64,000 nt of DNA, taken from contig CASICS010000004.1 of assembly GCA_949373255.1 (NCBI GenBank), forward strand, positions 41,625 to 105,624. The letters run 5' to 3'. This document shows, one piece after another, positions 13,373 to 62,407 of the stretch. The stretch's first letter is position 1. Every line of letters begins with the position of its first letter. The notes under the pieces were generated by a model. The model was not told the origin of the DNA. It saw nothing but the letters and a program-made list of their open reading frames with translations, and did not search any database. This DNA is from an uncultured SAR86 cluster bacterium (GTDB lineage: Bacteria; Pseudomonadota; Gammaproteobacteria; Magnimaribacterales; AG-339-G14). A program made the position numbers and the translations under genes.

Positions 13373-14083
13373 TTATTTTTCAGCCTTATCAAAATAAAGT
13401 ACTACACTCTTTCCTATTAACGGCTGGAGTAAAAATTCTAAAATTTTTGTAAAAACTGGTTTTTTCATCATATCCCAGACTAAAAACCTATGATAAAAAT
13501 CTATAATTTTTGAACTATCTTTTGAATCCCACATCAAACATTGAAGCCACCAATATGGTGAATGAAGGGCGTGCGCCCAGTGCCTTTTTTTAAATTTGAG
13601 CCCTAATGAAAGAATTGAATTTTTTAAATTATTAAATTTAAAAATCCTTACATGTCCTCCAGGAGTATTTTGATAATCTACGCTCAATTTCCAACAAATC
13701 CACTCAGGAAAATATTTTGGAACACTAACTGCCATTTTTCCACCAGGCTTTAAGACCCTTTCTATTTCTTTAAGTGCGCTTTGAAAATCAATTATGTGTT
13801 CAAGGACCTCAGAGCAAATTACATAATCGAAAGTTCCATCCGCAAAAGGGAGTTGTGTTGCGTCTGCAACACCAAATTTACAAAGTTTTGAATTGTTATT
13901 TTCATCAAACTCATCAAAGTTTTTCTCAGCTATCTTTACGTCTGACAGGCTCATATCAAAACCATAAACATCTATATTTGCGGACATATAAGCACCAAAA
14001 CAATGACGCCCTTGTCCACATCCAAGATCTAAAAATTTTTTATTAGATTCGAATTTAAAATTATCAAAATTTATGGTTTGCAT
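13373..14083 (-). CDS. class I SAM-dependent methyltransferase (Methyltransf_11 type)
   Basis: It has motif I LDLGCGQGRH and post-I/II FDYVICSEVLEHI...LKPGG. Confidence 0.75.
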   Translation of the reverse strand: MQTINFDNFKFESNKKFLDLGCGQGRHCFGAYMSANIDVYGFDMSLSDVKIAEKNFDEFDENNNSKLCKFGVADATQLPFADGTFDYVICSEVLEHIIDFQSALKEIERVLKPGGKMAVSVPKYFPEWICWKLSVDYQNTPGGHVRIFKFNNLKNSILSLGLKFKKRHWAHALHSPYWWLQCLMWDSKDSSKIIDFYHRFLVWDMMKKPVFTKILEFLLQPLIGKSVVLYFDKAEK

Positions 14084-52127: not shown

Positions 52128-53126
52128 ATGAAAAAAATAAATATTTTGGGCGTCGGAAATGCACTAGTAGATATTCAGTTTTCCATTAAAGACAATTTTC
52201 TTGAAAAACTAGGCCTCAAGAAGGGCACGATGGATTTAAAAGACCCTGAAGAGCAAAAAAATACTCATAGCAAATTGATAAAAACTTTCGGTGTTAGTAA
52301 AGATGCTTGTGGAGGCTCGGCTACAAATACTATTTATGCAGCTTCAATTTTGGGATCTAATTGTAGTTTCATCGGCAAAGTTGCAGACGACTCTAACGGA
52401 AATTTTTATATTGATAATTTAAACAAAGCGGGAATTAAAAATGATTGCATGTCTGAGAGTAAAGGTGTTTCTGGGAATTGCTTAATCATGATTAGCCCAG
52501 ATGCAGAAAGAACTATGAGTACGTTTCTAGGTATCAGTTCTGAATTACAAAAAATTGATATCAAAGAAGAATTAGTTTCTGAGGCAGAAATTGTTTATCT
52601 AGAGGGATATTTAGCAAGTTCCGATAGTTGTAACGAAGCTAGTAATGAAATTATCAGGCTTGCAAATGAAAATAAAACCAAAGTGGCTATAAGTTTGTCA
52701 GACCCCAATATAGTTGAAGCCTTCAAAGACAGATTGGAAGAGTGGATGGAAAATAAAATAGACTATTTGTTTTGTAACGAGGAAGAGGCAAAAGCTTTTT
52801 CAGGCTCTAGTGACTTGGAGATAGTCAAAAAAGAACTCAGTAAACTTGCTGAAACTTGTTTCATAACAAGAGGGAATGAAGGAGCAATAGTAATATCTAA
52901 TGGTGAAGATATAAAAATAGATGGCTTTAAAGCAAACGCTATTGATTCAAATGGAGCTGGAGATATGTTTGCTGGGGCAACTCTTTATAAAATAAGTAGC
53001 GGAGAAAGTAGCAAAAATGCTGCAAAATTTGGTTGTTTTCTTGCTTCCAAAGGTGTTGAAAATTATGGTCCAAGGCTGCTAGATGAGGATTATAGAAAAT
53101 ATCAGCAATTATTTAATCAAATCTAG
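52128..53126 (+). CDS. PfkB-family ribokinase-like kinase (adenosine kinase-like)
   Basis: It has GGSATNT and C-terminal DSNGAGDMFAG signatures. Confidence 0.7.
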   Translation: MKKINILGVGNALVDIQFSIKDNFLEKLGLKKGTMDLKDPEEQKNTHSKLIKTFGVSKDACGGSATNTIYAASILGSNCSFIGKVADDSNGNFYIDNLNKAGIKNDCMSESKGVSGNCLIMISPDAERTMSTFLGISSELQKIDIKEELVSEAEIVYLEGYLASSDSCNEASNEIIRLANENKTKVAISLSDPNIVEAFKDRLEEWMENKIDYLFCNEEEAKAFSGSSDLEIVKKELSKLAETCFITRGNEGAIVISNGEDIKIDGFKANAIDSNGAGDMFAGATLYKISSGESSKNAAKFGCFLASKGVENYGPRLLDEDYRKYQQLFNQI

Positions 53127-53183
53127 AAAAATTCAGTAGCAACTTATCATCGCATTTGATAAATTGCCCCCTCAAATATTTTT

Positions 53184-53807
53184 ATGCCAACTACAAAGAA
53201 AAAAATCTTAAAAAAAGCTCCTGCTAAAAAAGTTGTAGCTAAAAAAGCTCCTGCTAAAAAAGTTGTAGCTAAAAAAGCTCCTGCTAAAAAAGTTGTAGCT
53301 AAAAAAGTTGTAGCTAAAAAAGCTCCTGCTAAAAAAGTTGTAGCTAGAAAGAGCAAATCTAAAAAGGTAATAGTAAATCCATCAGATTTTGATTCGTTTG
53401 CAAAATCATTTACTCCTTATAATTCTTCAAAAACTGAGAAGTATATGAATAAGTCTCAGAAAAAACATTTTATTGGAATCCTTAATTCTTGGAAGAATGC
53501 TTTAGAATCCGAACAAGAAAAAACAGAAAAATTAATTCAACGAGATCAAAGTAACTTTCCTGATTCATTAGATAGAGCATCGAAAGAAGAAGAATTCATG
53601 CTCGAATTAAGAAAAAGAGAAAGAGAGAGGAAATTAATTTTAAAAATCGAGTTATCACTGAAAGATATTATTGATGATTTGTATGGCTACTGCGAAACCT
53701 GCGGAGTCGATATAGGTATTAAACGCCTAGAAGCAAGGCCAACAGCAACCAAGTGCATAGACTGTAAGACAGTTGACGAAATCAAAGAAAAACAACAATT
53801 CGGTTAG
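53184..53807 (+). CDS. dksA: RNA polymerase-binding transcription factor DksA with a ~55-aa Lys/Ala/Val/Pro repeat N-terminal extension
   Basis: The C-terminal 150 aa are collinear with E. coli DksA (YMNKSQ..., coiled-coil tip DSLDRASKEEE, RERERKLI, zinc finger CETCG...CIDCK). The N-terminus is (KKAPAKKVVA)n. Confidence 0.85.
   Translation: MPTTKKKILKKAPAKKVVAKKAPAKKVVAKKAPAKKVVAKKVVAKKAPAKKVVARKSKSKKVIVNPSDFDSFAKSFTPYNSSKTEKYMNKSQKKHFIGILNSWKNALESEQEKTEKLIQRDQSNFPDSLDRASKEEEFMLELRKRERERKLILKIELSLKDIIDDLYGYCETCGVDIGIKRLEARPTATKCIDCKTVDEIKEKQQFG
53211..53345 (+). repeat. perfect 30-bp coding tandem repeat (3 full copies, one 15-bp half unit, then 1 full copy)
   Basis: The unit is AAAAAAGCTCCTGCTAAAAAAGTTGTAGCT. 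Copies are identical at the DNA level. Confidence 0.9.
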
Positions 53808-53825: not shown

Positions 53826-54296
53826 ATGACTAAAAAACTAATTAAGGTTTTTATAGGATTGGGAACGAATCAAGGAAATAAGATTAAGAATTTAGAATTA
53901 GCTAAATTGCACATCATAAATTTTCCAAGTACTAAAATTATCAAAAAATCTTCAATTTATCGTTCTGTATTCTATGGTCATATTAAGCAGTCTGTTTTTT
54001 TAAACCAAGTAATTGAACTGACTACAACATTGAGTCCAGAACTGTTTCTTAAGAAATGTTTGGAAACAGAAAGAAGGATGGGAAGAAAAAGAACAAAGAA
54101 AGGTGCTTCAAGAAATATAGACGTCGATATAATATTTTATGGAGAAAAGACTATTTCTAAACCTTTAATAAAAATACCTCATCATGACTGGGAAAATAGA
54201 CTATTTTTTGTGAGACCTTTAGTTGAAATAAATCCTAGTTACATTAAAAATAGACCGCTAGAAGTAGAAAAAAATAAAATTCATAAATTAACTTAG
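53826..54296 (+). CDS. folK: 2-amino-4-hydroxy-6-hydroxymethyldihydropteridine diphosphokinase
   Basis: It has [11 protein letters not shown] at the N-terminus, an RNIDVDII block and IPHHDW. Confidence 0.85.
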
Positions 54297-61844: not shown

Positions 61845-62186
61845 ATGAAAGAAGGAATACATCCAGATTATGCAGCATTAAAAGCAACTTGTAGTTGCGG
61901 AAATGTCATAGAAACAAGATCTACTCTCGAGGGTGATCTATCGTTAGATATATGTTCAGCATGCCATCCTTTTTATACTGGTAAACAAAAAATTGTTGAT
62001 ACTGGAGGAAGAGTTGATAGATTCAAAAAACGTTTTGCTAAAACTGCTGGTGCAGCAACGCCAACTGAAAAACAAGAAGCTCCTGCTGAGGAAGTAGTTG
62101 CTGAGGAAGTAGTTGCTGAGGAAGTAGTTGCTGAAGAAGCTCCTGCTGAGGAAGTAGTTGCTGAGGAAGTAGTGCTGAGGAAGTAG
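61845..62186 (+). CDS. rpmE: 50S ribosomal protein L31 (type A, Zn-binding) with an acidic repeat tail. As assembled, the ORF is truncated by a 1-nt deletion, and the repeat continues in the -1 frame to 62332.
   Basis: The core MKEGIHPDY...CSCG...[24 protein letters not shown] is collinear with E. coli L31 (Cys16/18/37/40). The tail is ([10 protein letters not shown])n. Confidence 0.9.
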
Positions 62187-62290
62187 TTGCTGAAGAAGCT
62201 CCTGCTGAGGAAGTAGTTGCTGAGGAAGTAGTTGCTGAAGAAGCTCCTGCTGAGGAAGTAGTTGCTGAAGAAGCTCCTGCTGAGGAAGCT
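62076..62290 (+). repeat. coding tandem repeat of two 15-bp units (GCTGAGGAAGTAGTT and GCTGAAGAAGCTCCT), about 14 units
   Basis: The repeat is read directly from the sequence. One unit at 62161-62174 lacks a T (GTAGTGCT instead of GTAGTTGCT). Confidence 0.9.
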
Positions 62291-62407
62291 TCTACTGAAG
62301 AAAATTCAGAAGATTCTCCTAAAGAAAAATAACTTACTTTTAATTATCTTTGAAATCTTACTCAGCGCAGAGATTTTATATTCTTACAACTAACCTTAAA
62401 CAAGTAA

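Follow-up and report, generated by a model that had tools for sequence, protein, structure and literature searches.

A lysine-rich tandem-repeat tail on the DksA of a SAR86 bacterium and its possible role as a polyanion tether

Introduction

What might a lysine-rich, histone H1-like tail do at the N-terminus of DksA? In the stringent response, DksA acts together with ppGpp, and the textbook models of its action are derived from the tail-less protein of Escherichia coli. The question is raised by the dksA gene of an uncultured SAR86 cluster bacterium, which lies on the 64,000-nucleotide stretch of DNA analysed here (referred to as the window in the rest of the paper) and contains, near its start, a series of perfect 30-bp repeats. 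We characterized the core of the encoded protein, its tail and the occurrence of such tails in relatives and in other bacteria, and weighed the roles that a tail of this kind could have.

Results

The dksA gene (53184..53807, + strand) consists of 207 codons and a stop, from an ATG at 53184 to the end of the frame at 53807, and was identified from the open reading frame list and from matches to TIGR02420, PF21157, PF01258 and the E. coli DksA structure 1tjl. Approximately the last 150 residues of the 207-aa product are DksA, while the first 63 or so form the tail. TIGR02420 scored the whole protein at 140.9 bits, above its curated cut-off of 115.5, with a coverage that begins at residue 88, and both PF21157 (77.9 bits) and PF01258 (42 bits) exceeded their gathering scores. 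E. coli DksA (1tjl) matched with an E-value of 1e-45, residues 76-207 of the query aligning onto residues 20-151 with 75 identical positions out of 132 (57%). The enteric-type equivalog NF008045 / PRK10778 was not reached (169.4 bits compared to a cut-off of 289). Judged by these scores, the protein is a DksA orthologue that falls outside the narrow enteric-length type.

The globular region begins with a conserved N-terminal segment (residues 64-88, IVNPSDFDSFAKSFTPYNSSKTEKYM; 53373..53447, + strand), which is conserved in relatives and aligns with residues 20-32 of E. coli DksA. It is followed by the coiled coil (53451..53672, + strand), whose two helices were placed at residues 90-123 and 128-163 by the secondary structure of an AlphaFold2 model. 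In the pairwise alignment with the E. coli protein, the DxxDxA tip (D127-S-L-D130-R-A132, at 53562-53579) corresponds to D71, D74 and A76, and the cysteines of the C4 zinc finger (C170, C173, C191 and C194; 53691..53765, + strand), which lie within the PF01258 match at residues 167-197, correspond to C114, C117, C135 and C138, respectively. The E. coli residues R91, K94, L95, K98, R129 and K139, which we take to make up ppGpp site 2, the site formed together with RNA polymerase, are all conserved in the same alignment. R125 is likewise conserved, and the one substitution among the positions checked is a lysine in place of E. coli N88.

The AlphaFold2 model was built from 16 sequences and has a middling mean pLDDT of 62.8, and was used for fold class and disorder only. 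Besides the two long helices, it contains a zinc ribbon and a C-terminal helix. Its best Foldseek matches in the PDB were 5vsw_M, 1tjl_A and 7khi_M, which represent DksA alone or in complexes with RNA polymerase and ppGpp. The genome to which the window belongs carries one RelA/SpoT gene, indicating that ppGpp is made. The fold match to 5VSW and 7KHI and the RelA/SpoT gene are indirect evidence for the predicted binding of the protein to the secondary channel of RNA polymerase and for its predicted potentiation of ppGpp. In the same genome, which is 77% complete, this gene gave the single genuine DksA match, and a search for a second, tail-less DksA paralogue found none. From these matches, the identity of the gene as dksA is almost certain, and we take it to be the single, housekeeping copy of the organism.

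The gene neighbourhood is like that of E. coli K-12, in which dksA, gluQ, pcnB and folK follow one another on one strand. In the window, folK (HPPK; 53826..54296, + strand) comes directly after dksA, 18 nt 3′ of it, and its counterparts in the syntenic loci L078-L081 are matched by PF01288. On the 5′ side lies a gene coding for a PfkB-family sugar/nucleoside kinase (52128..53126, + strand; PF00294 in the syntenic loci), and a promoter scan recognized no promoter on the + strand of the 57-nt spacer between the kinase gene and dksA.

The lysine-rich N-terminal tail, delimited by its composition and predicted disorder, comprises residues 1-63 (53184..53372, + strand) and reads MPTTKKKIL-(KKAPAKKVVA)x3-KKVVA-KKAPAKKVVA-RKSKSKKV. 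It is a Lys/Ala/Pro/Val sequence with about 40% Lys plus Arg and no Asp or Glu, compared to a genome background of 11.4% and 12.9%, respectively. Residues 1-63 have AlphaFold2 pLDDT values below 50 and no secondary structure. By comparison with E. coli DksA, the extension is 56 residues long, counted up to the point at which the E. coli protein would begin.

Within the tail, a tandem array of four 30-bp units (KKAPAKKVVA) and one 15-bp half unit (53211..53345, + strand) was defined by Tandem Repeats Finder, by reading out the units and by the variants found in other strains. The four units, at 53211-53240, 53241-53270, 53271-53300 and 53316-53345, are letter-identical, each reading AAAAAAGCTCCTGCTAAAAAAGTTGTAGCT. 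The half unit (KKVVA; 53301..53315, + strand) equals a 30-bp unit minus its AAAGCTCCTGCTAAA part, which encodes K-A-P-A-K; it duplicates GCTAAAAAAGTTGTA once and has no counterpart in near-identical strains from two other metagenomes. Tandem Repeats Finder reported a period of 30, 4.2 copies and a score of 198 over 53211-53337, far beyond chance. A first-pass annotation of the window had described a canonical DksA core, with its DxxDxA tip and C4 zinc finger, fused to an H1-like lysine-rich repeat of about 55 extra residues made of four DNA-identical 30-bp units and a KKVVA insert. The TIGR02420 score and the residues aligned with E. coli agree with its account of the core, its reading of the repeat is exact to the base, and the fusion is a genuine in-frame joining of an H1/Hc2-like low-complexity tail to DksA.

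An antisense frame of 69 codons (FLATTFLAGA...; 53147..53356, − strand) in the open reading frame list covers the repeat. We rejected it as a gene because it merely reads the lysine repeat in reverse complement, and is hence a by-product of it. A comparable spurious antisense gene, XCV2557, has been retired in Xanthomonas (PMC5559785).

The tail also resembles a group of basic nucleoid and granule proteins. Pfam HC2 (PF07382) matched residues 3-63 with 47.7 bits against a gathering score of 40, while the NCBIfam Hc2 model (30.5 against 135) and the Burkholderia H1-like model (34.2 against 80) both remained far under their cut-offs. We thus rejected homology with Hc2, as the curated NCBIfam H1-like models score so low and the PF07382 match is compositional. 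Hc2 of Chlamydia, AlgP of Pseudomonas, BpH1 of Bordetella and the C-terminus of PhaF are, like the tail, Lys/Ala/Pro-rich, acid-free, repetitive and disordered; unlike it, they stand alone as proteins of the nucleoid or of granules or are attached to other domains, and the likeness is one of composition that gives no evidence of a shared descent. The SAR86 protein is no stand-alone basic-repeat nucleoid protein, as its repeats belong to a tail of 63 residues appended to a DksA core of 144. A paper whose title is cited in PMC3783465 deals with intragenic repeat-number variation in Hc2, likewise a feature of the array described here.

Whether the tail is made depends on where translation starts. 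In a codon scan, the first in-frame ATG, GTG or TTG after the ATG at 53184 was that of Met88 at 53445, a residue that the alignment pairs with Met32, which is internal in E. coli DksA. The 24 residues that precede Met88 (residues 64-87, NPSDFDSFAKSF.PY...KTEKY) are conserved at the protein level in relatives. In 28 relatives belonging to three families of the order that includes this bacterium, the tail is in frame, starts 0-16 codons past the upstream stop, and contains about 40% Lys plus Arg and 0-1 acidic residues. Indels are many among these 28 tail-bearing relatives, always in multiples of three, and the frame stays open. Because there is no start codon before Met88, residues 64-87 are conserved as coding sequence and the frames of the relatives are open, we consider it nearly certain that translation of the tail is obligatory. 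A start downstream of the repeat in orthologues lacking the tract had been named beforehand as the outcome that would count against a fusion; the orthologues keep the tail, and no alternative start precedes Met88. No Shine-Dalgarno sequence was found before the ATG at 53184. Since SD-like motifs precede only about 20% of the long open reading frames in this genome, the missing Shine-Dalgarno sequence and promoter at the start of dksA are uninformative.

Perfect repeats are confined to the lineage of the window and its closest kin, and the rest of the genus carries degenerate lysine-rich tails. Near-identical metagenomic strains have 1-6 units and differ by exact steps of 15 or 30 bp. Among metagenomic proteins that are 82-97% identical to the SAR86 protein, the unit is homogenised within each sublineage, is peculiar to it and varies in number: KKAPAKKVVA four times with no half unit, KKAPAQKVMA one to three times, KKAPVKKAVV two to four times, or KKAPAKKAAV six times (6.4 DNA-perfect copies). 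A comparison is provided by L078 and L079, contigs from two other metagenomes: within the approximately 340 bases aligned around the array, they differ from the window in nothing but the 15-bp half unit and a change from AGA to AAA at the codon of Arg55. From these alignments, the array expands and contracts in frame over short time scales. The first-pass annotation had taken the perfect DNA identity of the units as a sign of recent expansion or contraction and had suggested aligning orthologues; the 1-6 units of related strains, their homogenisation by lineage and the strain that differs by a 15-bp indel all support that view, and the relatives keep the extension while its length and repeat number differ between strains. 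Arrays of 120-190 bp are close to the k-mer limit of short-read assemblers; some repeat counts may thus be assembly choices, and some strain differences may reflect assembly collapse of the 135-bp array.

Two effects that such a repeat might have on expression were rejected. On/off phase variation is incompatible with units that are all multiples of three, as slippage alters the length of the tail and not its frame. Ribosome sliding on lysine runs encoded by poly-A would need longer runs than the 6-7 consecutive A bases present here.

The tail can hardly be aligned even inside the genus, where the DksA core is 80-90% identical, arguing for selection on charge and composition, not on sequence. 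Its persistence in streamlined genomes of about 1.2 Mb likewise argues for selection. In a genome of another family (G035), the decapeptide KKAPAKKVVA occurs three times and is encoded by different codons (GCA CCA GCT AAA AAA GTC GTG GCT), which suggests that a favoured peptide was reached by convergence or has long been retained. Within the order, a C4-type DksA comes with a tail in families f1 and f2 and, for the most part, in f3. In its place, family f4 and a single genome of f3 code for a DksA-like protein with two cysteines and no tail, and the tail is thus dispensable with that variant.

To place the tail more broadly, we examined an even sample of 400 gammaproteobacterial genomes, 360 of which contain a DksA above the cut-off. 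Among the best 150 of these 360 matches, the stop-to-stop frame reaches 200 codons or more in 76; 39 of the 76 long frames were read, and in 33 of them a basic, K/A/P-rich tail, between about 40 and 250 residues in length, is clear. These counts suggest that roughly two in five (about 40%) of the sampled gammaproteobacterial dksA genes are tail-bearing. Comparable tails are also carried by DksA or DksA/TraR-like proteins in Methylophilaceae, Chromatiales, Xanthomonadales, Burkholderiales, Bacteroidota and acI Actinobacteria. The best 150 matches among 1.8 billion representative proteins are mostly 190-450 residues long, and many of them align through the tail. The first-pass annotation was aware of no such repeat on a secondary-channel factor of RNA polymerase. 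This impression has to be corrected, since tails are widespread in Gammaproteobacteria, Bacteroidota and Actinobacteria and two examples, DdbA of Streptomyces and DksA of Xanthomonas, are published. Our literature search found nothing, beyond Xanthomonas DksA, on such tails in canonical gammaproteobacterial DksA, and no publication naming SAR86 together with DksA. The tailed DksA is thus a widespread, published and functionally under-studied architecture, not a new kind of protein or a new principle.

Discussion

The DksA described here shares with that of E. coli (151 aa; 1TJL, 5VSW and 7KHI) the core, the DxxDxA motif, the C4 finger, the fold and the folK side of the locus, and differs from it by the lysine-rich tail. 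On balance, we think it fairly probable that this tail acts as a non-specific tether for DNA or another polyanion, keeping a weakly binding DksA near its target. DksA would bind the secondary channel of RNA polymerase and work with ppGpp. Because the globular domain in 5VSW and 7KHI reportedly sits at the rim of the channel with its N-terminal residues flexible, the 63-residue N-terminal polycation would project outside the polymerase, within reach of DNA. Selected for its charge and composition, the tail could tether DksA non-specifically to DNA or other polyanions, and such a tether would retain DksA at the nucleoid or at complexes of RNA polymerase with DNA, thereby raising its effective concentration near the target. 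The perfect 30-bp units make up a slippage-prone repeat, through which the tails of closely related strains come to differ by steps of 5 or 10 residues with the frame intact. We infer both the binding of the tail to DNA or polyanions and its effect on the action of DksA.

Experimental precedent for such a tether comes from DdbA (SCO2075) of Streptomyces coelicolor, in which Aldridge et al. (2013) described an N-terminal H1-like half followed by a DksA-like half at the C-terminus (PMC3643593). The tail of DdbA, unlike the DksA-like half by itself, binds DNA and condenses it, and the full-length protein is needed to suppress a relA defect (PMC3643593). In the view of the authors, the tail is peculiar to streptomycetes (PMC3643593). 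Like the SAR86 protein, DdbA carries lysine-rich N-terminal repeats in frame with a DksA-type domain that has a pair of aspartates at the tip and a zinc finger with four cysteines, and the length of its tail varies between species. Unlike it, DdbA is one of three DksA-like paralogues of an actinobacterium, and its 93-residue tail is made of S/T-A/T-A-K-K pentapeptides. An actinobacterial DksA-like protein with a lysine-rich tail is only about 33% identical to the SAR86 core over 90 residues. As the SAR86 core is far nearer to E. coli DksA (57% compared to 33%), the two fusions probably arose independently; the core of DdbA is a distant relative, and the likeness is one of architecture.

A second precedent comes from a gammaproteobacterium. 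Abendroth et al. (2017) established by mass-spectrometric peptides and start-codon mutagenesis that DksA of Xanthomonas euvesicatoria has 256 aa and not the annotated 147, and detected, under the native promoter, a processed variant beside the long form (PMC5559785). Their paper contains no analysis of the composition or function of the extension (PMC5559785). The Xanthomonadales relatives that we read (L039-L043) have long K/A/P-rich extensions, as in the window. They differ in that the X. euvesicatoria extension is longer than the SAR86 tail and that the Xanthomonadales cores read lack the zinc cysteines. A further parallel is CarD of Myxococcus xanthus, which, as described in PMC2919716, joins an RNA polymerase-interacting domain to an HMGA-type DNA-binding tail. 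On that description, CarD resembles the SAR86 DksA as a member of an RNA polymerase-interacting family with a basic, eukaryote-like DNA-binding tail, and differs from it by an unrelated polymerase-binding domain (CarD_CdnL_TRCF) and by the C-terminal position and AT-hook type of the tail.

The partner of the tail could instead be polyphosphate, rRNA or ribosomes, or mRNA, and DksA could be drawn into polyphosphate- or RNA-rich condensates at starvation, a proposal made for the lysine-rich AlgP. Lysine-rich low-complexity tails are generic polyanion binders, and the C-terminal domain of AlgP has been discussed as a partner of polyphosphate (PMC9239181). However, the sole experimental precedent for a DksA-type tail is binding to DNA (PMC3643593), and the genomes lend polyphosphate little help: although PPK2 is present in the genome of the window and in 33 of 41 relatives, it is equally present in the tail-less family, and PPK1, the main polyphosphate synthase, was found in none of the 41 genomes examined in the order, 29 being at least 90% complete. 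We therefore rejected a link to polyphosphate by way of the PPK genes, as PPK1 is in 0 of 41 genomes and PPK2 occurs with or without the tail, with no correlation. We regard a partner other than DNA as possible, if rather unlikely.

It is doubtful that the tail is a neutral product of slippage, devoid of function and tolerated because the N-terminus of DksA is exposed to solvent. Such a tail would be expected to lack sequence conservation, as this one does, and to vary in length, which ranges from 27 to about 80 residues in the order and exceeds 200 elsewhere; moreover, one family manages with a tail-less DksA-like gene. Drift, however, would let in acidic residues and frameshifts, whereas about 40% Lys plus Arg and 0-1 Asp or Glu (background 12.9%) are maintained across three families with genomes of about 1.2 Mb. 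The recurrence of the architecture in several phyla and the encoding of KKAPAKKVVA by different codons in a distant family also speak against neutrality.

We give still less credence to the tail as a handle for regulated processing or degradation, through which proteolysis would free or degrade DksA and thereby determine how much of it is present. Proteases typically enter at disordered basic tails. The processed variant that accompanies the long form in X. euvesicatoria fits such a handle (PMC5559785), but the sequences suggest no defined cleavage site, the boundary between tail and core differs among families, and processing would in any case be compatible with tethering. Finally, it is extremely improbable that the tail is missing from the protein, with translation starting at Met88 (53445) and the repeat left as an untranslated leader or annotation artefact: the opening of the TIGR02420 coverage at residue 88 and the absence of a Shine-Dalgarno sequence or promoter-like site 5′ of 53184 would suit that start, but Met88 aligns with an internal methionine of E. 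coli DksA (Met32), residues 64-87 are conserved as protein, all 28 of the 28 tail-bearing relatives keep an open frame with indels in multiples of three and a start near the upstream stop, Shine-Dalgarno motifs are scarce genome-wide (about 20%), and the long form of DksA is proven in Xanthomonas (PMC5559785).

If the tail does tether DksA to DNA, conclusions drawn from E. coli about the concentration of DksA, its competition with Gre factors and its promoter selectivity may not transfer to bacteria with a tailed protein. These would include a large share of environmental Gammaproteobacteria, among them the very abundant type of small-genome marine plankton to which this bacterium belongs, which make a polycation-tailed DksA. 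The locus described here is a small and clean example with repeat variation at the level of strains. One could imagine the in-frame repeat as a tuning knob, slippage by 5 or 10 residues shifting the hold of DksA on the nucleoid; we think this quite improbable, though if it were true, sister lineages and even cells would differ heritably in the strength of their ppGpp response.

Still more speculative is an electrostatic pairing, within this order, of the DksA tail with an acidic tail on ribosomal protein L31, which would link DksA to ribosomes. The window contains an L31 gene (61845-62186) with an acidic repeat tail that is broken by a one-base frameshift. An acidic L31 tail is a feature of families f1 and f2 and not of f3 or f4, and f3 does have DksA tails. 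An examination of 10 further genomes of the class with a DksA tail revealed no acidic L31 tail; nine of their L31 frames are 80-110 aa long, and the 172 aa of the tenth are due to upstream read-through. A charge mirror between a basic DksA tail and an acidic L31 tail was thus rejected as a general rule, given f3 and the 10 genomes of the class without acidic L31, and we base no conclusion about the role of the DksA tail on it. The DNA likeness of the DksA and L31 repeats is that expected from codon bias and from the amino acids common to both, and their Val-Val codons are reversed in order.

Variants of DksA and other basic segments

Family f4 and one genome of family f3 carry a DksA-like gene of 136–148 codons that lacks the basic tail (L133, L134 and L135, in genomes G027, G038 and G030, respectively). 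It retains two of the four zinc cysteines together with an intact DxxDxA tip, and resembles the zinc-independent DksA2 type. In a further family of the order, the DksA tail of genome G035 (locus L136) contains three copies of the decapeptide KKAPAKKVVA found in the window, encoded by codons that differ from those of the window (GCA CCA GCT AAA AAA GTC GTG GCT). Either the shared unit arose by convergence or it is old.

An AKP-type tail was found in no gene other than dksA in the source genome, which is 77% complete. Besides DksA, the sole 40-residue segment rich in K/R and poor in acidic residues in a real-looking non-ribosomal gene of this genome lies inside an RNase E/G-like protein. This protein is encoded on the minus strand of contig C18, in a frame of 719 codons that begins at base 14059 when the contig is reverse-complemented.

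Upstream spacer of dksA and translation initiation

The 57-nt spacer separating the PfkB kinase gene from dksA holds an imperfect inverted repeat with a 12-bp stem (53138–53168), which is terminator-like by score on the minus strand only; part of it (TTTGATAAATTGCC) is kept in one genome of the same genus (L002). Across all contigs of the source genome, GGAG, GAGG or AGGA precedes only about 20% of the ATG-initiated frames of at least 200 codons, as counted in the 17 bases upstream of the ATG (positions −20 to −4). This organism seems to use Shine-Dalgarno-led initiation only exceptionally.

Polyphosphate kinases

PPK1 (PF02503) was found in none of 41 genomes of the order, namely the source genome and 40 relatives, 29 of the 41 having a completeness of 90% or more. 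PPK2 (PF03976) occurs in 33 of the 41, including the source genome (contig C26, 5655–6329).

Ribosomal protein L31

The rpmE gene of the window (61845–62332), which codes for ribosomal protein L31, is extended beyond its 66-aa core by an acidic repeat tail. At about 62165–62175, one repeat unit reads GTAGTGCT in place of GTAGTTGCT, resulting in an in-frame TAG at 62184, past which the acidic repeat runs on in a different frame to about 62330. Acidic tails are intact in f1 and f2 relatives (frames of 108–170 aa); L31 of f3 and f4 has no acidic tail (78–96 aa).

The N-terminal half of the window L31 (61845–61945) is of the zinc type, CSCG...CSACH, while all same-genus relatives compared (L108–L115) have a non-zinc type (YREVLFHDTSVD...) at the syntenic position. 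Despite these differing N-terminal types, the C-terminal half (residues 33–67) is 86–89% identical between the window and the same-genus relatives. From its sequence, the window gene looks like a mosaic, or like a ribosomal protein gene of which one half has been replaced.
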